This document shows, piece by piece, positions 30,255-38,861 of a stretch of DNA of 64,000 bases (the first letter of the stretch is position 1; each line of letters begins with the position of its first letter). The notes beneath the pieces are model-generated. The model was given only the letters and a program-made list of their open reading frames with translations. It was not told where the DNA came from and searched no databases. A program made the position numbers and the translations under genes. Origin of the DNA: an uncultured Candidatus Saccharibacteria bacterium (lineage in GTDB: Bacteria > Patescibacteriota > WWE3 > UBA101185 > UBA10185); contig CAZBAJ010000001.1 in NCBI GenBank assembly GCA_964490125.1, positions 3,573 to 67,572 on the forward strand, in the 5' to 3' direction.

Positions 30255-30806
30255 ATGTCAAGAATTGGTAAAAGAACATTACTAGTACCGGAGGGCGTTG
30301 AGGTTAATGCTACCGGTAGAGATGTTAAAGTTAAGGGTCCAAAGGGTGAGCTTAGTGTAGTTTTGCCTATGGGCATTATGGTAAAGGTTGACGGGGGTTC
30401 GCTGACGACAAACTTAATGGACGAAAGCAAGGCTAAATTACTATCACCCTCCTGGGGATTAGCAAACGCTTTAGTTAATAACGCTTTGCAAGGAGTTAAA
30501 ACCGGTTTTACTAAAAAGTTAGAGCTAAGTGGAGTTGGTTACCGGGCTAAAAAGACTGACAAGGGAATTTCTATGACTTTGGGTTTTTCTCATCCGGTGG
30601 AGTTTGATTTGCCAAAAGGTATAGAGGTTAATGTAGAAGATAACACTCAACTTACGGTGTCCGGTATAGATAAGCAGTTGGTAGGGTTAGTTTCCGCCCA
30701 AATTAGAAAGCTTAAAAAGCCGGAGCCTTATAAAGGCAAAGGAATTAAGTATTCAACCGAGGTTGTTAGAAGAAAACCTGGTAAAGCAGGAAAGGCGCAA
30801 AAATGA
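30255..30806 (+). CDS. rplF: 50S ribosomal protein L6
   Basis: MSRIGKRTLLVPEGVEV L6 N-terminus, two-domain length. Confidence 0.95.
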   Translation: MSRIGKRTLLVPEGVEVNATGRDVKVKGPKGELSVVLPMGIMVKVDGGSLTTNLMDESKAKLLSPSWGLANALVNNALQGVKTGFTKKLELSGVGYRAKKTDKGISMTLGFSHPVEFDLPKGIEVNVEDNTQLTVSGIDKQLVGLVSAQIRKLKKPEPYKGKGIKYSTEVVRRKPGKAGKAQK

Positions 30807-31165
30807 TCTCAAAAGTGATAGCCAGAAAATCAAATAGAGAGCGACGCAAAGTGCGGATCAGGAAAAAGATCCAAGGTACAGCTTTGTCGCCCAGACTTAC
30901 ACTTTTTAGGTCAAACAGGTATATTTATGGACAAATTATTGACGACACTGCGGGCAAAACATTAGTTGCCAACAGCGCGGAAGTCACGGATTTGCACAAG
31001 GGCGTAAAAAAATTGGACGCATCCAAAAAGTGCGGTCAAGCGTTGGCAGAAAAAGCCGTCAAAGCAAAAATTAAGAAAGTAGTGTTTGACAGAAATGGTT
31101 ACATTTACACGGGTAGAGTAGCAAAATTTGCAGAAGGCGCCCGCGAGGGAGGTTTAGAATTTTAA
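30803..31165 (+). CDS. rplR: 50S ribosomal protein L18
   Basis: RLTLFRSNRYIYGQIIDD L18 signature. Confidence 0.9.
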   Translation: MISKVIARKSNRERRKVRIRKKIQGTALSPRLTLFRSNRYIYGQIIDDTAGKTLVANSAEVTDLHKGVKKLDASKKCGQALAEKAVKAKIKKVVFDRNGYIYTGRVAKFAEGAREGGLEF

Positions 31166-31718: not shown

Positions 31719-32136
31719 TTTACCAAAAATTTATGGGAATAAGTCCGCCAAAAAGCGCGTTGGACGGGGTGGTGGTAGTGGAAAAGGCTTTCACACTACG
31801 GGAACAGGTCATAAAGGTCAAAATGCTAGGCGTGGTCACGGGATTCCGGTGGGTTTTGAGGGCGGTCAGGTACCGTTGTACAAAAAACTACCTAAGATCC
31901 GGGGTTTTAAAAGGTCGTACAAACAAAAACCCGCAATAGTTAATCTTAACGCGCTTGGAGCCTTTAAAGCTGGGGATCAGGTAAACCCCCAAACGCTACT
32001 GGAGAAAAAACTTATCACAAAAAAAGATCTTACCAGAGAGATTAAAATTTTAGGTGAGGGAAGTTTAACAACCAAGCTTGAGTTTAGCGGAGTCAGTTTT
32101 TCCAAGTCGGCGCAAAAAACCATAGAAAATGCTTAA
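31708..32136 (+). CDS. rplO: 50S ribosomal protein L15
   Basis: GRGGGSGKG...; follows rpsE directly (no rpmD). Confidence 0.9.
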   Translation: MLSSLPKIYGNKSAKKRVGRGGGSGKGFHTTGTGHKGQNARRGHGIPVGFEGGQVPLYKKLPKIRGFKRSYKQKPAIVNLNALGAFKAGDQVNPQTLLEKKLITKKDLTREIKILGEGSLTTKLEFSGVSFSKSAQKTIENA

Positions 32137-33373
32137 AAAGAAACTTATTTTTACCTTTTTTATTATTGTCCTGTTTAGGATTTTGGCAAACATTCCTGTA
32201 CCGGGTGTTGATATTACAGCCATTAGGGCATATCTTTCTGGTAACGCGGTTTTTGGCATGTTAAACCTGTTTTCCGGCGGTGGCTTTTCTAACTTCTCCT
32301 TAATGACCCTAGGCCTTGGACCCTACATCAACGCCTCTATTATTATGCAGATTTTTACCGTCGTCATACCAAAATTAGAGGAACTTTCTAAAGAGGGTGA
32401 GTTTGGACGGGAAAAAATCAATCAGTATACTAAAATTTTAACCATTCCAATCTCGCTTTTGCAGTCGTACGGCATGTACTTTTTACTTATGAAACAAAAC
32501 ATTATTACTCCCTTGCCGGTATTAAATTTAATCGTATTTATGCTTACGCTTATGGGCGGAGCAATGCTGTTAGTTTGGCTGGGCGACTTACTAACAGAAA
32601 ACGGCATTGGTAACGGAATTTCCATGCTTATTTTTGTAGGTATTGTAGAGCGACTTCCTGCCGGCCTTTCACAATTTTACCTCATGTTAAATCCCGACAC
32701 CTTTTTAAGATCCTTACTCTTTTTGGCAGGTGCGATGGCGCTTATTTTAGGTATTGTTATGGTTAACGAGGCGGTAAGAAACATTCCGGTGGAATATGGT
32801 AGACGGGAAAGTTACAGCCAGAAAAATCCGGGGGGTGTGACTTCGTCGCTGCCTATTAAAGTCAACCAAGCGGGAGTTATACCAATAATTTTTGCAGTGT
32901 CCGTGGTTATGCTCCCGCAACTTATTGCCACACCTTTAGCTGCTTCCGGTAATGCTCTTGCAGTTCAGATTGGGAACTTTCTCCAATACAGTTTTACCAC
33001 CACATCCTTTGCCTATAACGCATTTTATTTTCTTCTGGTACTTGGTTTTACCTATTTTTATACTTCTTTCCAGTTTGACCCGGTAAAAATTGCGGACGAC
33101 ATTAAAAAGCGTGGAGGTTTTATTCCCGGCGTGCGACCGGGCAAAAACACTACGGATTATCTCCGCAAGATTATTAACCGAATTACTTTGGGTGGCGCGG
33201 TTTTTCTTGGTTCCATAGCAATTTTGCCAAATTTAGCTGGTAGTTATTTTGGTTTTGGTAATTTAGCCATTGGCGGGAGTGGGCTTTTAATTGTAGTTTC
33301 AGTTGTGTTGGAGACCGCCCGTCAGATAAAATCTGTTAAAGCCACAAAGAGTTACGAAAACTTTTTAAATTAG
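32129..33373 (+). CDS. secY: preprotein translocase subunit SecY
   Basis: 10 TM topology, conserved SecY blocks. Confidence 0.95.
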   Translation: MLKKKLIFTFFIIVLFRILANIPVPGVDITAIRAYLSGNAVFGMLNLFSGGGFSNFSLMTLGLGPYINASIIMQIFTVVIPKLEELSKEGEFGREKINQYTKILTIPISLLQSYGMYFLLMKQNIITPLPVLNLIVFMLTLMGGAMLLVWLGDLLTENGIGNGISMLIFVGIVERLPAGLSQFYLMLNPDTFLRSLLFLAGAMALILGIVMVNEAVRNIPVEYGRRESYSQKNPGGVTSSLPIKVNQAGVIPIIFAVSVVMLPQLIATPLAASGNALAVQIGNFLQYSFTTTSFAYNAFYFLLVLGFTYFYTSFQFDPVKIADDIKKRGGFIPGVRPGKNTTDYLRKIINRITLGGAVFLGSIAILPNLAGSYFGFGNLAIGGSGLLIVVSVVLETARQIKSVKATKSYENFLN

Positions 33374-33673: not shown

Positions 33674-33689
33674 TATAATAGATACGCCA
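33674..33689 (+). promoter_or_regulatory. TATAAT box 9 nt upstream of the first methyltransferase ATG
   Basis: TATAAT 33674-33679; ATG 33689. Confidence 0.35.
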
Positions 33690-34966
33690 TGTACAAGAAA
33701 TCTCCTGTCATACCTTTGTTTGATGATGTCAAAATAGATCAATCGTGGTCTTTTTCTGAAAAAACAAGAAAAGAAACTGCCTATATTACCCACGGTTATC
33801 ACAGATACCCTGCAAAATTTATCCCACAAATTGTTGCCAGGCTAGCGGAAGAATATACCAAATTGGACGACCTGATTGTTGACCCCTTTGGAGGTTGTGG
33901 GACAACGCTAGTGGAATCAAAAATCATGGGTAGAAATTCCATTGGAGTGGATATTAACCCCGTAGCAGTTTTAATTACCAAGGCAAAAATTACCCCACTA
34001 GAGCCAACAAAAATAGAGAAAGAGTTTTGTCTACTTAAAGATAAGATTGACGCATACAATTTGGAAAAAGAAGTAAAAGCTCCAGAACATGAGAGAATTG
34101 ATTATTGGTTTAAGCCAGAGAATAAGCGCAAACTAGCCTTTATTTTTGCCACAATTACCAAAATAACTGATCAAGATGTCCGTGACTTTTTTATCTGTGC
34201 ATTTTCTAATATATTAAAAAGTTGCTCTATTTGGTTACAAAAAAGCAATAAGCCAACACGAGACTTACACAAAAAACCTGTCGAACCTACTCTAACATTT
34301 TACAGGCAAGTTAAGGCTATGTTGCGCGGTAACGCTCGATTCTATGAACTATTGCAACAAACCAATCGTCTAGAAACATCCAGTAAGGTCTTTTGTACCG
34401 ATGCCAGAACTATTCCTACCAAAGATGGAACCGTCGATCTAATTGTTACCTCCCCGCCCTATGTTACCTCTTATGAATACGCGGATCTTCATCAACTAAC
34501 CGCTTTGTGGCTTGAACACACTAAGGATCTAAGCGATTTTAGAAAAAGATTTATTGGTACTTCTTACCATAATAAAAAGGATTTAGTTCTAAACAGTTCT
34601 ATTGCGGAAAGTATCAGAACGGATTTATTAAAAAAGGACAGAAAAACTGCTGAAGAGGTGTCAACATATTTTAGCGAAATGAACCAAGTCTTTATTGAGA
34701 TGAAACGAATTCTTAAAAAAGGTGGCAAAACTTGTATTGTGGTAGGTAATACGAGCCTTAAGGGTGTTGAGGTGCTAAACGCCGAAGTTTTTGCCGAACA
34801 ATTACAAAACTTAGGGTTAAAAATTGTAGATATTATCAAGCGGGAGATCCCTTCAAAAAATCTTCCATCGGTTAGGGATGCGAATACTGGAAAATTTGCT
34901 AAAATAGGTCAAGAGAATAAAGTTTCCGCCTACCCAACTGAATTCATCCTAATAATGGAGAGATAA
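33689..34966 (+). CDS. DNA methyltransferase (amino-MTase, probable N4-cytosine or N6-adenine), alpha-like motif order
   Basis: AdoMet motif I DPFGGCGTT at about aa 65 preceded by HRYPAKFIPQIV (HPTQKP-like); catalytic motif IV TSPPY at about aa 265. Confidence 0.75.
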   Translation: MYKKSPVIPLFDDVKIDQSWSFSEKTRKETAYITHGYHRYPAKFIPQIVARLAEEYTKLDDLIVDPFGGCGTTLVESKIMGRNSIGVDINPVAVLITKAKITPLEPTKIEKEFCLLKDKIDAYNLEKEVKAPEHERIDYWFKPENKRKLAFIFATITKITDQDVRDFFICAFSNILKSCSIWLQKSNKPTRDLHKKPVEPTLTFYRQVKAMLRGNARFYELLQQTNRLETSSKVFCTDARTIPTKDGTVDLIVTSPPYVTSYEYADLHQLTALWLEHTKDLSDFRKRFIGTSYHNKKDLVLNSSIAESIRTDLLKKDRKTAEEVSTYFSEMNQVFIEMKRILKKGGKTCIVVGNTSLKGVEVLNAEVFAEQLQNLGLKIVDIIKREIPSKNLPSVRDANTGKFAKIGQENKVSAYPTEFILIMER

Positions 34967-34969
34967 AAC

Positions 34970-35665
34970 ATGATTAATTATAGCCAAAATTTTCAAGAAA
35001 TTGTGGTTCCACTCGTGAATCAATTTGCAGAAAAATACGGATACGATCAAGTGCATAAGTATTTTTTCGACATACTTGATGACACAAAAGATAGATATCA
35101 ATTAGCTTGTCAAAAAGACAAAGGTCAAAGTTGGAGAAATGAAAGCGGAACAATGTTAGAAAATATGGTCATATATTTTATACAAGAAGAGGTTAAAAAA
35201 ATGGGTTATGACTTAGTGTCCGACGAACAGATAAAAAAGGCGTCTCAAGGTGATGGAATAATGAGTAAGGTGTACCGTAATATAGTCGTCCGTTATGGGG
35301 ATTACTTAGTTATTCCTGATGGAGATATTGTTATTTATAAACCTAGTGATGGGAATGTGGTAGCTATCATCTCTTGTAAAAACTCTTTGCGGGAGCGGTA
35401 TGCTCAATCTCTATACTGGAAACTCAAACTTTCGCTAGATCCAATAACAAAACCAATCAAGATGTATTTTATAACGATAGACAAAGAGAAAGGCAAAAAA
35501 CCTGAATTGGATATTAACAGCAAAAACGGTCGCCCTACAAAATCAAGAATTTTATTGGAACATGAGATGGACGGTGTCTATGTTGGTAGAGAGTTAAAGG
35601 ATACCAGCGATAAAATAAAAGAATTCAATAAATTTATCGATGATTTGAGAAAGCTACTGAAATAA
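34970..35665 (+). CDS. hypothetical protein, candidate restriction endonuclease of the cassette
   Basis: 4 nt after MTase stop; weak PD..(S)xK-like stretch VIPDGDIVIYK...ISCK; no recognisable family. Confidence 0.35.
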   Translation: MINYSQNFQEIVVPLVNQFAEKYGYDQVHKYFFDILDDTKDRYQLACQKDKGQSWRNESGTMLENMVIYFIQEEVKKMGYDLVSDEQIKKASQGDGIMSKVYRNIVVRYGDYLVIPDGDIVIYKPSDGNVVAIISCKNSLRERYAQSLYWKLKLSLDPITKPIKMYFITIDKEKGKKPELDINSKNGRPTKSRILLEHEMDGVYVGRELKDTSDKIKEFNKFIDDLRKLLK

Positions 35666-35669
35666 ATCA

Positions 35670-36068
35670 ATGGAGCAACTACTTTTACAACTTGGATTAG
35701 GGATTACCTCAAATGTTATCTACGATCTTATAAAGGATTTTTTCTCTAAAAATCCCAAAGCAGACAAATCGCAACTACAAAATAGATTAGCCTCTTTTCT
35801 TAATATTCAAAACGCCAATGTAGTGGCAGATAGCATCATTACCTTTTTAGCTAAGAATGGGGATATAAGAATTGAGGGAACAAGTATTTATGCGAACGAC
35901 TCTATATCGATGTTTTCATCGCAAAATACAAAATTTACTTTCGGTAACACTAGCTCAAGTACAACAAAAAATACACGAATCGAAATTGGTGGTGGTGCCT
36001 TTATTCAAGGACAGTGCGGTGCGGGTGTGAAACAGAATAAGGATGGAAGTATGGTTTTTTATGCTTAA
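35670..36068 (+). CDS. hypothetical protein (S/T/N-rich C-terminal half)
   Basis: ORF of 132 aa tightly packed between cassette genes; no recognisable motif. Confidence 0.4.
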   Translation: MEQLLLQLGLGITSNVIYDLIKDFFSKNPKADKSQLQNRLASFLNIQNANVVADSIITFLAKNGDIRIEGTSIYANDSISMFSSQNTKFTFGNTSSSTTKNTRIEIGGGAFIQGQCGAGVKQNKDGSMVFYA

Positions 36069-36070
36069 TT

Positions 36071-36742
36071 ATGGAAATTGAATCAACAACACTTTGGGAT
36101 TTTCCCAAACAAAATTATGGAGGTATCCCTCATGGGGATAACAAATACAATGGGGTTACGCCTGCCCAGGTAATATGGAATTTACTGCAGAGATACACTA
36201 AAGAGGGTGATTTAGTTGTGGATCCTATGTGCGGGAGTGGTACAACCATCGATGTTGCTAAAGAATTAAATAGAAAGGTAATTGGTTACGATCTAAATGT
36301 TACAAGGTCCGATGTCATTAAAAACGACTCTCGTAAAATACCTCTTGAAAATAATTCCGTGGATTTTGTTTTTATTGATTCGCCTTATTCCGACAATATT
36401 AATTATTCCGCTAATAAAGAATGTATTGGCAAAATATCCTGTGAGAAAACGGAATTTTATGATGAATTAGAAAAAGTTGCTGAGGAAATCCATAGGATAT
36501 TAAAGCCTGGGAAAGTAATGGGTTGGGTTATTGCAGATCAATGGGTTAAAAAGAAATTTACTCCCGTTGGATTTTTACTGTGGCAAAGGTTAGAAAAATA
36601 TTTTGAACCAGTCGATCTGATTTGTTTAACAAGAAAGAACCAAACCTCTAATACACCTGTCTGGCATGAGAGGGCACGCTTATACAATTTTTATCTGCGT
36701 GGATTTAAATATCTGTTTATTATGAGAAAAGTAAAACAATGA
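36071..36742 (+). CDS. second, compact DNA methyltransferase paralogous to 33689..34966
   Basis: WDF...HG...YTKEGDLVVDPMCGSGTT (motif I) aligns residue-by-residue with WSF...HG...YTKLDDLIVDPFGGCGTT of the first MTase; motif IV-like FIDSPYSDNINY. Confidence 0.65.
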   Translation: MEIESTTLWDFPKQNYGGIPHGDNKYNGVTPAQVIWNLLQRYTKEGDLVVDPMCGSGTTIDVAKELNRKVIGYDLNVTRSDVIKNDSRKIPLENNSVDFVFIDSPYSDNINYSANKECIGKISCEKTEFYDELEKVAEEIHRILKPGKVMGWVIADQWVKKKFTPVGFLLWQRLEKYFEPVDLICLTRKNQTSNTPVWHERARLYNFYLRGFKYLFIMRKVKQ

Positions 36743-37350
36743 AAATTTTATTACTAGGTCCACAAGGTTGCGGAAAAGGAACAATTGGGCAGATGCTTGC
36801 CGAGCGGATGGGGATTCCTTTGCTTTCTGTGGGGGAAATGTTGCGGTCGGTGGAGATGTCGTCCCAGTATTATCAAAAAGTCCAAGAAGACACTAAAAAC
36901 GGCGTTTTGGTGGCGGAAGAAATTGTTGTCGCTCTGCTAAAAGAGGAGCTTGCTAAAGAAAAGTATAAAAATGGGGTTATTTTTGACGGATGGTGCAGGC
37001 GAATGAGTGATCTTGAGGCGTTTGATCCGGGTTTTGATTTTGTAATCGTGCTTGAACTGTCGCGCGAGACCTCTATTAAAAGAATCAGTGGGCGTAGGCT
37101 ATGCCAGGTTGACGGAAAAACCTATAACATTTTAACTTTGCCCAAAGAGGAACTGGCAAAATGTCCAGGCAGGTTAATTCAGCGGGAGGACGACACGGAA
37201 GAAGCGGTAAAAAAGCGGTTAGAAATTTATTACACGCAGACGCAGGAAGTCGTGGATTATTTTGACAAGTTGGGCAGGACAATTCATATTAACGCCGAAC
37301 CTTTGCCGGGTGTCATTTTTACGGATTTGATTAATAAATTAGGAGAATAA
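36739..37350 (+). CDS. adk: adenylate kinase
   Basis: GPQGCGKGT P-loop, LID region. Confidence 0.95.
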   Translation: MKILLLGPQGCGKGTIGQMLAERMGIPLLSVGEMLRSVEMSSQYYQKVQEDTKNGVLVAEEIVVALLKEELAKEKYKNGVIFDGWCRRMSDLEAFDPGFDFVIVLELSRETSIKRISGRRLCQVDGKTYNILTLPKEELAKCPGRLIQREDDTEEAVKKRLEIYYTQTQEVVDYFDKLGRTIHINAEPLPGVIFTDLINKLGE

Positions 37351-37359
37351 CTTAACCTC

Positions 37360-37397
37360 TTGAAATCGACTATAAAAATTGGTATATTCCTTACCTA
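37360..37397 (+). promoter_or_regulatory. promoter TTGAAA-17-TGgTATATT for MazF-like gene, ATG at predicted TSS (leaderless)
   Basis: -35 37360-65, TG 37380-81, -10 37383-88, ATG 37397. Confidence 0.5.
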
Positions 37398-37846
37398 TGG
37401 TAGTTGATATTAAGCTTTTTGACATATGGAATGTATTAAAGAAAAAGATACACCAAAGAATTGATGTTAGGTATTTTAGAGAAGGACAGATTTGGTGGTG
37501 CTACATTGGGCAGAATGTCGGATCCGAAACCTATGGTAAAGGTGATAAATTTATCCGCCCAGTGTTGATTTTTAGAAAACTATCTCCAAATCTATTTTTA
37601 GGAATACCCATTACTAGCAAAGATAGATCTGGTAGTTGGTATAGTTTGTTAACGAGTAAATCTACTAAACAGGTTGCTATGTTATATCAGGCAAGGGTGA
37701 TGGATCGCAAAAGGCTTTCTAATCGAATGATGGAAATATCGGAAAAGGAAATGGAGAGGTTAGAGGTCGACCTTATTAGTCTTTGGTCCAGGGGGAAATA
37801 TTCACCCCGCCTTACGGCGGGGATCAAAGGGTTACCCCTAAAGTAA
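37397..37846 (+). CDS. MazF/PemK-like toxin-fold protein (putative endoribonuclease), no adjacent antitoxin
   Basis: GQIWWCYIGQNVGSE..., LGIPITSKDRS collinear with MazF blocks (G-IWxVDFxPxxGSE ... VPxTS); AT-rich; own promoter. Confidence 0.55.
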   Translation: MVVDIKLFDIWNVLKKKIHQRIDVRYFREGQIWWCYIGQNVGSETYGKGDKFIRPVLIFRKLSPNLFLGIPITSKDRSGSWYSLLTSKSTKQVAMLYQARVMDRKRLSNRMMEISEKEMERLEVDLISLWSRGKYSPRLTAGIKGLPLK

Positions 37847-37887
37847 GAATATTGTATGCTAAGTAGGTGTTTTTGTCAAAATAATTT

Positions 37888-38622
37888 ATGATCCTTATTA
37901 AATCGTCACAAGAAATAGAGGCCATGTTAGAAAGTGGCAAAATTGCCAGAAAAGCCATAGACGAGGCGGTTAAGCAGGCACGGGTTGGAATGACGACTAT
38001 GGAGCTTAACAATTTGGCGGAAAAAGTCATTGTAGACGCCGGGGGTAAGCCGTGTTTTAAAGGCTTTGAGGGCTTTCCCACCGCTACCTGTATAAATATT
38101 AACGAAGGCATTGTCCACGGTCTGCCGGGAAAATATCAAATGAAGTCTGGGGATATAGTAAGCGTAGATTTAGGCGTTTTATACAAAGGTATGTATAGCG
38201 ATGTATCAGAGTCGTTTGAGCTAGAAACCAACCTCCAAAAACGGTTTCTCTACTTTGGTAGAAAAGCATTGGAACTTGCCATCGAGTCCTGCGTCATAGG
38301 CAACCACATTGGGGATATTTCCTACGCCATCCAGTCCACCTTAAAACACGCCGGTTACACAGTTACCAAAGATTTAGCAGGTCATGGCGTGGGTCGGGAG
38401 CTTCATGAGGATCCGTATGTAGAATGCTTTGGTCGACGCGGAAAGGGGCATGAAATCAAGGAAAACATGACTTTTGCTATAGAAGTTATCTACCAAAAAG
38501 GTCGACCAGAATTAAAGTTAGATAAGGACGGCTGGACATTAAAGACCGCGGATGGTAGTCTTGCAGGACTTTTTGAAAAGAGCGTGGCGGTAACAAGGCA
38601 AGGACCACTTGTTTTAACCTGA
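37888..38622 (+). CDS. map: methionine aminopeptidase type I
   Basis: pita-bread fold metal ligands D..D..H..E..E pattern, length 244 aa. Confidence 0.95.
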
Positions 38623-38648
38623 TAAGTCTGGTAAAATCTTGCGGTTGC

Positions 38649-38861
38649 ATGAGTAAAGAGCTAGTTACAAAGGACGGAATAGTTAGGGAAGCCCTTCAGG
38701 GCGGACTTTTCCGTGTAGAGTTGCAGGACGGGACCTTAATTTTAGCGGTACTTTCGGGCAAAACCCGCAAGTTTCACATAAGGATACTTCCAGGCGACAG
38801 AGTCAAAATGGAGTTTTCTCCTCACGACTTAACCAGAGGAAGGATTTCTTACCGACTTTAG
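38649..38861 (+). CDS. infA: translation initiation factor IF-1
   Basis: 70 aa S1-like, [19 protein letters not shown]. Confidence 0.95.

Follow-up and report, generated by a model that had tools for sequence, protein, structure and literature searches.

A MazF-fold toxin gene and a convergent small RNA gene between adk and map of a WWE3 bacterium: a putative toxin-antitoxin module with an RNA antitoxin

The window analysed in this work is a 64,000-nucleotide (nt) stretch of contig CAZBAJ010000001.1 (assembly GCA_964490125.1, positions 3,573 to 67,572 of the forward strand) from an uncultured bacterium. Its ribosomal protein S4 is 80% identical to named WWE3 proteins, which assigns it to candidate division WWE3 of the candidate phyla radiation (CPR). 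Between adk (36739-37350, plus strand, Pfam ADK 3e-30) and map (37888-38622, plus strand, Pfam Peptidase_M24 2e-37) lies an open reading frame (ORF) of 149 amino acids (aa) at 37397-37846 of the plus strand, which starts with ATG and codes for a protein of the PemK/MazF fold. A predicted small RNA (sRNA) gene of approximately 49 nt (37796..37844, minus strand) converges on the 3' end of this ORF and is a candidate RNA antitoxin; the two genes are described here as a putative toxin-antitoxin (TA) module. The adk-toxin and toxin-map spacers are 46 and 41 nt long. An earlier note, written from the letters of this DNA, had pointed to an AT-rich ORF breaking the adk-map order, and the base composition bears this out, the GC content being 0.33-0.39 over 37200-37800 as compared to 0.43-0.46 in adk and map. 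Translation of the toxin is likely to begin at the ATG, because the alternative in-frame TTG upstream of it (37379) falls within the -10 box of the toxin promoter and a 65%-identical homologue (locus L001) begins at the equivalent of window position 37400.

The only Pfam match of the toxin is to PF02452 (PemK_toxin; E 3.4e-10, 40.5 bits with a gathering cut-off of 23.1); it covers residues 29-126 and spans profile positions 2-105 of 109. An AlphaFold2 model calculated with 117 homologues (mean predicted local distance difference test score, pLDDT, 86.8) has the SH3-like beta-barrel with a C-terminal helix that is seen in the solved MazF and Kid structures. When the PDB was searched with this model using Foldseek, all 50 best matches were MazF, PemK or EndoA chains (probability 1.0, target-normalised template modelling (TM) score 0.65-0.79), headed by the MazF proteins of S. 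aureus, B. cereus and B. subtilis (probability 1.0, TM 0.72-0.79). Comparison of the family profile with the PDB placed R54-P55 of the toxin on R25-P26 of B. subtilis MazF, and T73 on T48. The catalytic residues of MazF are an arginine (R29 in E. coli, R25 in B. subtilis) and a threonine or serine (T52 and T48, respectively); their role is treated, for example, in PMC8086154. In a 10-sequence alignment of the family R54 and P55 are invariant and T73 is at least 90% conserved. Ahead of the MazF core (residues 29-126, with R54-P55 and T73) the toxin has a family-specific N-terminal helix (residues 8-19, with W11 and K15), and the C-terminal helix occupies residues 116-131. In NCBIfam the MazF match of the toxin stayed below threshold, and the PADLOC defence-system models gave no match for three family members. 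Judged from the model and the alignments, the protein is predicted to be a MazF-fold endoribonuclease with its fold and catalytic residues intact, in agreement with the MazF/PemK assignment of the earlier note, and we infer that it is toxic.

The toxin gene has a predicted promoter of its own (37360..37388, plus strand), composed of TTGAAA (37360-37365), a 17-nt spacer and the extended -10 element TGgTATATT (37380-37388). In a promoter scan this site scored 10/12 with the TG extension, a match which taken alone is not significant: the region holds fewer promoter-like sites than its shuffles. The promoter is kept in L001 as TTGATA-17-TGcTATATT, and in 24 of 80 loci of the toxin family an extended -10 box ends 5-10 nt before the toxin start codon, compared to about 1.4 expected. 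Because the -10 box of the window gene ends only 8 nt ahead of the ATG, the toxin mRNA is predicted to be leaderless or near-leaderless, as had been proposed in the earlier note.

No antitoxin-sized ORF was found beside the toxin gene in the ORF list of the window, and the two spacers are without a conserved small ORF, again as previously noted. The sole mechanically called ORFs near the toxin gene are antisense to it, at 37687-37827 (46 aa) and at 37824-38111 (95 aa). The 46-aa minus-strand ORF was considered as a hidden antitoxin and was rejected, its start codon being missing in L001. Nor was an antitoxin-sized neighbour present in the gene calls of relatives in the contexts inspected, which were adk-map, an island with NUDIX and short-chain dehydrogenase/reductase (SDR) genes, a region with a type IV secretion system coupling protein, and a polysaccharide cluster.

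What does accompany the toxin gene is the RNA gene, a kind of partner that the earlier note had allowed for by suggesting that the antitoxin could be an sRNA. Its predicted promoter lies in the toxin-map spacer (37851..37879, minus strand) and consists of TTGACA (37879-37874), a 17-nt spacer and TACAAT (37856-37851); with 11/12 it is the best promoter match of the region, and it is kept in L001. The predicted transcript, 5'-ACUUUA GGGGUAACCC UUUGAU CCCCGCC GUAA GGCGGGG UGAAUAUUU, starts at 37844, the complement of the T in the toxin stop codon; the position of its 3' end is approximate. It comprises a short leader, a 4-bp hairpin (hairpin 1, 37828..37839, minus strand; pairs A-U, G-C, G-C and G-C, loop GUAA), a linker, a 7-bp GC hairpin with a GNRA loop (hairpin 2, 37805..37822, minus strand; CCCCGCC-GUAA-GGCGGGG) and a U-rich tail (UGAAUAUUU, 37804-37796, minus strand). 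Hairpin 2 is an exact inverted repeat, reading CCCCGCC-TTAC-GGCGGGG on the plus strand, and is terminator-like. The sRNA is complementary in full to about the last 46 nt (16 codons) of the toxin coding sequence and to the first base of the stop codon. A third helix formed by the 5' leader with the 3' tail was not adopted, as only 61.6% of its cells pair and the variation is mostly between U-A and U-G.

Comparison with L001 shows how this stretch differs from the rest of the ORF. The last ~50 nt have 93.9% DNA identity, versus 61.1% in the ORF body, and third codon positions are shared in 15 of 17 codons of the tail, versus 52 of 132 in the body; the frozen third positions therefore indicate that selection acts on the nucleotides there. 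Rfam 15 gave no match at gathering threshold in the whole window, and a search of 37300-37960 at E<=10 returned as its best hit Ref84 with 19.8 bits, against 52 needed (E 6.9). No tandem repeats were detected by Tandem Repeats Finder in 36700-38700, and a repeat search yielded only short two-copy matches and no array.

As the window ORF runs across nearly the whole RNA gene, the last 17 residues of the toxin (133-149, GKYSPRLTAGIKGLPLK, 37793..37843, plus strand) represent translated read-through: the tail is the RNA gene read as codons, not a conserved part of the protein. These residues have pLDDT values of 46-59, are predicted to be disordered and are missing from most homologues. The opposite view, that the 3' stretch encodes a conserved C-terminal peptide motif (K-Y-x-P...G..G.P) and is not an RNA gene, could draw on the loosely similar tail of several distant homologues, which is the hairpin translated as codons. 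The element sits past the toxin stop codon in most loci, L010 and L019 among them, synonymous sites are frozen, the pairs of the RNA are compensatory and the tail has no predicted order, so this view is already contradicted and can be given practically no credence. From the C-terminal helix block of the earlier note the helix at 116-131 stands, and the 17 residues at the end of the block do not.

To place the locus in a wider context, relatives of the toxin were collected. A HMMER search gave 2,133 clusters (50% identity) at E<=0.001, of which 1,324 at E<=1e-10. Members share the MazF core and the N-terminal helix (F/YDxWNxxKK, with W11 invariant), and the only name that they carry in databases is 'type II toxin-antitoxin system PemK/MazF family toxin'. 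When species-representative genomes were scanned with the 10-sequence alignment, 422 relatives were confirmed, and the best 80 of these come almost all from Patescibacteria/CPR (Saccharibacteria, Kuenen-, Nomura-, Gracili-, Magasanik- and Uhrbacteria, Paceibacterota and Minisyncoccia), with a few Campylobacterota bins. Only three relatives on viral contigs, one of them with the sRNA, turned up in IMG/VR, and the family is therefore not primarily phage-borne.

A covariance model of the RNA (R1) was built from 27 hand-checked examples and searched against the window and 85 loci (536.6 kb, both strands). It yielded 83 matches at E<=1, all on the strand opposite to the toxin gene and nearly all at the toxin 3' end; 80 of the 91 family ORFs have the RNA at this place. 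In the window the match at 37793-37846 (minus strand; 49.2 bits, E 2.4e-11) is the sole one in 64 kb. Ten loci missed by R1 were inspected by eye, and each has in the same place a promoter convergent to the toxin gene, a GC hairpin followed by a U tail and, at the 5' end of the RNA, a small hairpin, the sequence of which is a variant in these loci (GGC-GAAA-GCC, or GUCC-UUCG-GGAU in the Campylobacterota bins). The earlier note had called the gene a solitary, orphan toxin, a description that cannot be kept when a conserved partner RNA is present in essentially every family member examined.

The structure of the RNA is supported by covariation. In an alignment of 79 distinct sequences, which was fitted to the R1 model and thereby favours the structure, 93.0% of the pair cells form standard pairs, compared to 74.7% in column shuffles and 44-62% in slid controls. 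Eleven of the 12 pairs change on both sides, with 186 compensatory cells versus 55 in shuffles. In hairpin 1 the closing pair is U-A (43) or C-G (31), GGG/CCC is nearly invariant and 99.4% of the cells are paired; in hairpin 2 compensatory changes occur in all seven modelled pairs across the family. Both hairpins were recovered independently by RNAalifold. Upstream elements stand at a fixed distance in 80 distinct loci (TTGACA at -41 to -36 and TG-extended TATAAT at -20 to -13), and in 81% of these an A is found at -6 from hairpin 1, the expected start of the sRNA. The GNRA loop of hairpin 2 is on the minus (sRNA) strand in 46 of 79 sequences, and the U tail is on that strand only. It is the promoter, the GNRA loops and the U tail that fix the orientation of the RNA, not the strand test of G-U versus A-C pairs (26 versus 15), which is only mildly informative. 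Taken together, that the convergent RNA gene is real is close to certain. The extent of its overlap with the toxin ORF varies: in 45 of 75 loci it amounts to 1-8 nt, the toxin stop codon being placed opposite the U tail of the RNA, in 13, including the window, the ORF spans nearly the whole RNA gene, and in seven there is no overlap.

Several irregular members were also seen. Some loci have two tandem sRNA genes behind one toxin gene and others two full modules within a few kb; copies were recorded in L026 (624-690, 737-802), L088 (3265-3316, 3414-3470), L078 (103-157), L047 (1153-1620, 4001-4500) and L089 (2938-3440, 4330-4729), and one of the two modules of L089 has a disrupted toxin ORF. 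Three members were called as fusions, namely P0156 (215 aa, HTH_3/XRE with PemK), P0150 (325 aa, PemK with a RuvC-like C-terminal region) and P0187 (243 aa, PemK with PF07866); these are either real fusions or the product of gene calling that read through across the sRNA gene. The sRNA variant of the Campylobacterota bins (ACAAUU-GUCC-UUCG-GGAU-GCCCCUUG...CAAGGGG-AGAAAAUCUACAC; L028, L033 and L069, which are Sulfuricurvum, Sulfurospirillum and Sulfurimonas bins) differs hardly at all between the three genera, and this points to a module that has recently spread by horizontal transfer.

The position of the module was compared between relatives. In four WWE3 genomes (L099-L102) whose S4 proteins are 97, 86, 84 and 80% identical to that of the window, adk is followed directly by map with a gap of 21-29 nt or a 4-nt overlap, and neither a PemK gene nor an R1 match was found in these four. 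L001 has the module between adk and map like the window, the toxin being found at this site in three assemblies plus this one 65%-identical relative. In another genome, whose adk and map overlap, the secY-adk gap contains the gene of a 52%-identical toxin with its RNA, flanked by NUDIX and SDR genes. Since the adk-map site is empty in the four WWE3 relatives and another relative carries the module elsewhere, the unit of approximately 520 bp at 37360-37879 is a mobile, lineage-specific insertion and not a fixture of the ribosomal operon.

These observations bear on the view that the gene codes for a MazF-like RNase which is truly solitary or has been domesticated, or is what remains of a decaying TA system, and has become part of the ribosomal-protein operon. 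Such a view could account for the lack of an adjacent protein antitoxin, for the place of the gene in an operon and for its retention at the site in the three assemblies and the 65%-identical relative. A conserved partner RNA gene is present, the site is empty in four closer or comparably related genomes, the module occurs elsewhere in another relative, and the toxin has kept its catalytic residues and its complete fold; this makes domestication or decay, both of which the earlier note had considered, very improbable. The same note had named as evidence against itself a gene kept at this position in all relatives together with a conserved partner: the conserved partner has been found, and the gene is absent from the site in some relatives.

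The empty adk-map spacers, which were compared with window positions 37351-37396, contain TGcTATTCT or TGgTATTCT 7 nt before the map ATG (L099 5058-5086, L101 5087-5115). The motif looks like a leaderless map promoter and resembles the TGgTATATT of the window toxin. No such promoter precedes map in the window, where map follows the toxin gene and faces the sRNA promoter head-on. It may be that the inserted module took over the map promoter. A perfect 13-nt inverted repeat (ATTATTTTGACAA / TTGTCAAAATAAT, 37256-37268 / 37873-37885) joins the 3' part of adk to the -35 region of the sRNA promoter and is overlapped by a plus-strand promoter-like site, TTGACA-17-CATATT. It was considered as the terminal repeat of the insertion and was rejected, as its left arm belongs to the adk coding sequence, where it specifies YFDK of Adk, and this sequence is also found in relatives with an empty site; the repeat is therefore probably a coincidence.

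Transcripts have been mapped for a plasmid-borne member of the family. Searching plasmids by tblastn revealed homologues in Helicobacter, Nitratiruptor and Campylobacter; they are 31-41% identical, and the N-terminal extension is part of the similarity. One of them is CJJ81176_pVir0047 of plasmid pVir of C. jejuni 81-176 (30634-31038, plus strand; 36-40% identity, PemK_toxin 8e-8). Between pVir0047 and pVir0048 the sRNA CJpv3 of 77 nt is encoded on the minus strand (31119 to 31043) and was detected by Northern blotting (Dugar 2013, PMC3656092, Table S12). In the dRNA-seq data of that study the start site at 31119, antisense to pVir0047, had a read height of 16164, compared to 28 at the primary start of pVir0047 at 30608 (PMC3656092, Table S5). 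The pVir sequence shows TTGATT...TGATATAAT, the start site, three hairpins and a terminator that ends 5 nt beyond the toxin stop codon. The pVir0047-CJpv3 pair has the architecture of the window locus, and for this family member the architecture is confirmed by transcript data. Since R1 has no match in pVir, the window RNA and CJpv3 are alike in architecture and not demonstrably homologous. On pVir of 81-176 an RNA-antitoxin/protein-toxin pair, cjrA/cjpT, has been validated (Shen 2016, as cited in PMC7826846 and PMC10470494). The pVir0047-CJpv3 module was found only in 81-176-type pVir records, a distribution that would agree with cjrA/cjpT being confined to this plasmid. Small Campylobacter plasmids of 4-5 kb (pCJ419, NC_004997; NZ_CP084081; NZ_CP048773; NZ_OY754861) contain a 93%-identical copy of CJpv3, which in pCJ419 (L097, 1501-1595) is located at the 3' end of a gene for a 142-aa hypothetical protein without Pfam match or PemK similarity (hhalign probability 0.1); on these plasmids the CJpv3 cassette may serve a different protein or the control of plasmid replication.

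Taking these results into account, we read the locus as a two-gene TA module in which a MazF-fold toxin is paired with a cis-antisense RNA antitoxin, and estimate the probability of this reading at about 0.7. The convergent sRNA, provided that it is expressed in this organism as its promoter predicts, is quite probably the antitoxin: neutralisation best explains the strict one-to-one linkage of the RNA with a toxin family that otherwise lacks an antidote, and the approximately 500-fold higher read count at the sRNA start than at the toxin start of pVir corresponds to the stoichiometry of an antitoxin. That the sRNA acts by base-pairing rather than by binding the protein is favoured slightly.

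In the mechanism that we envisage, the toxin promoter would give rise to a leaderless mRNA, and read-through transcription from adk would probably contribute as well. The convergent sRNA of ~49 nt would be made from its own strong promoter, ending at the terminator-like hairpin, and being abundant would pair with the 3' end of the toxin transcript. The resulting duplex would be cut by a double-strand RNase, or would block the ribosome. In the window allele cleavage would remove the stop codon, therefore producing a non-stop message, exposing it to decay, so that little toxin is made. If sRNA synthesis stopped (by loss of the locus, shut-off of transcription or phage attack), the toxin would be made and would cleave cellular RNA. 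A leaderless toxin mRNA has no 5' untranslated region (UTR) to regulate, and therefore fits control from the 3' end.

Some points weigh against this interpretation. The conserved 5' hairpin is not required by a purely antisense mechanism. In most loci the RNA overlaps only the toxin stop codon and the 3' UTR, thus the toxin mRNA must read through; for this mRNA no evident terminator was found on the plus strand. The U run is 2-5 nt away from the hairpin and in the window it is short (UGAAUAUUU), which makes the 3' end of the sRNA and the efficiency of termination uncertain. The failure of R1 to match the pVir RNA counts here as well. Finally, cjpT and cjrA are only possibly the same genes as pVir0047 and CJpv3, respectively.

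The linkage of the two genes could have another cause: instead of being an antitoxin, the sRNA might be a convergent-transcription device (insulator or interference), or might regulate the toxin message positively or stabilise it, with the toxin controlled otherwise, e.g. by autoinhibition through its N-terminal helix. The aMEF antisense RNA stimulates the mazEF TA operon (PMC8749433), the module is often found amid same-strand genes where control of read-through could matter, and the 93%-identical CJpv3 copy stands beside the unrelated 142-aa ORF on small Campylobacter plasmids. This explanation is improbable in view of the strict one-to-one linkage with a toxin family that lacks any other antidote and of the ~500-fold excess of the sRNA start in the pVir reads.

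The conserved shape of the RNA raises the question whether it is recognized by the protein. The type III toxins ToxN and AbiQ have a Kid/MazF-related fold. In a type III-like arrangement, the chief alternative to our reading, the structured sRNA would bind the MazF-fold protein and block its active site, perhaps as a pseudo-substrate, and the complementarity to the mRNA would be a by-product of the layout. The sRNA would then be a dedicated ligand in a single-copy, convergently encoded inhibitory complex, a novel TA type between I and III, with the N-terminal helix as the RNA-binding element, and such modules would be the main TA or abortive-infection currency of CPR. Three features agree with this: the RNA shape is kept (a stable small hairpin 5-6 nt from the 5' end and the GNRA hairpin), which antisense action alone does not need; the basic N-terminal helix (W11, K15) is conserved in the toxin family and absent from canonical MazF; and the overlap with the coding region is merely 1-8 nt in most loci. 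On the other hand, neither a tandem repeat array nor an upstream RNA gene on the same strand is present, and the protein matches MazF, not ToxN or AbiQ, with no PADLOC match. The sequence of hairpin 1 varies by subfamily (GGG/CCC, GGC/GCC, GUCC/GGAU), and that of pVir is different again, while the protein core is conserved. Moreover, the strict convergent abutment is needed for cis-antisense control and not for protein binding. On balance we consider inhibition by a protein-bound RNA unlikely, in all of these aspects, and prefer the antisense module.

Compared with known systems, the module combines features of several types. With MazEF and PemIK (Kid-Kis) it shares the fold, the Pfam family PF02452, the catalytic arginine and threonine and a similar core size, but it has a convergent sRNA partner instead of a MazE/PemI protein and a two-gene operon, and its toxin has the additional N-terminal helix and a transcript predicted to be leaderless and monocistronic. 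The adjacent, co-transcribed protein antitoxin of type II systems was found neither at the locus nor in the gene calls of relatives. Of the hallmarks of type I, an sRNA with its own promoter and complementarity to the toxin mRNA is predicted here, transcription having been shown only for the pVir homologue; the hydrophobic membrane peptide of less than 60 aa has no counterpart, as the toxin is a soluble MazF-fold protein of 149 aa. The type I systems txpA/RatA, bsrG/SR4 and yonT/SR6 of B. subtilis are convergent, have their own promoters and overlap at the 3' ends, and their RNAs form a duplex that leads to RNase III cleavage and mRNA decay. Their layout is like that of the window module, and the duplex-and-decay action proposed above is taken from them. 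They differ in having membrane peptides of less than 60 aa, RNAs of 180-220 nt and overlaps of 75-120 nt, whereas the window family has toxins of 130-150 aa with a soluble RNase fold, an RNA of ~50 nt and an overlap usually confined to the stop codon and the 3' UTR.

The type III systems ToxIN, CptIN and TenpIN likewise have an RNA-neutralised endoribonuclease of Kid/MazF-related fold. Their antitoxin consists of tandem repeats upstream on the same strand, which the toxin processes into pseudoknots, whereas the window RNA is single, downstream and convergent; neither an upstream same-strand repeat array nor a toxin of the ToxN/AbiQ/CptN/TenpN family is present. SymE/SymR and RalR/RalA of E. 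coli provide a precedent for an sRNA antitoxin that controls a nuclease-type, non-membrane toxin (PMC1891008, PMC4041452). In the former the RNA overlaps symE at its 5' end and the toxin fold is AbrB/MazE-like; in the latter the RNA works in trans through 16 nt of complementarity. Neither toxin has the MazF fold. An experimental parallel is pVir0047/CJpv3, with a homologous toxin including the N-terminal extension and a convergent, highly expressed sRNA ending 5 nt past the stop codon; CJpv3 differs from the window RNA in its 77 nt and three hairpins, and this system is plasmid-borne, belongs to Campylobacterota and has a toxin mRNA with a 26-nt leader.

The surroundings of the module form the end of the ribosomal-protein super-operon. 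The genes are secY (32129-33373), adk and map, followed by infA, rpmJ, rpsM, rpsK, rpsD and rpoA. Between secY and adk there is a low-GC restriction-modification island (33689-36742) with two N6/N4 DNA methyltransferase genes (33689-34966 and 36071-36742), a BsaWI-like restriction endonuclease gene (34970-35665, PF18643 2e-27) and a 132-aa ORF without assigned function (35670-36068); the second methyltransferase gene overlaps the start codon of adk. In relatives the secY-adk gap is filled by YbaB and other cargo (a NYN nuclease, an SDH-type protease and unassigned ORFs). Because the cargo differs among relatives, this gap is a hypervariable hotspot inside the super-operon.

RNA antitoxins, MazF toxins, convergent type I layouts and one plasmid-borne family member with a mapped sRNA were known before. 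No account was found in Rfam, PADLOC, NCBIfam names or the searchable literature of a MazF-fold toxin family whose members as a rule have a convergent sRNA of their own, nor of the CPR RNA family or its abundance in CPR genomes. MazF and PemK are textbook type II toxins, neutralised by proteins. The present family is labelled 'type II toxin' in databases with no antitoxin, its tiny convergent RNA gene having been missed by gene callers and by Rfam. To our knowledge, few defence systems are known in CPR bacteria. The locus illustrates that such modules can insert within this super-operon, immediately ahead of the essential genes map, infA, rpmJ and rpsM. If our reading is true, many apparent 'orphan MazF' annotations would be resolved, and a widespread RNA family would be added to hard-to-culture organisms whose non-coding RNAs are almost unknown. 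The unit of ~520 bp, with a leaderless toxin gene and a 50-nt RNA, would then offer a simple, testable module for the control of an enzyme toxin by an RNA antitoxin.

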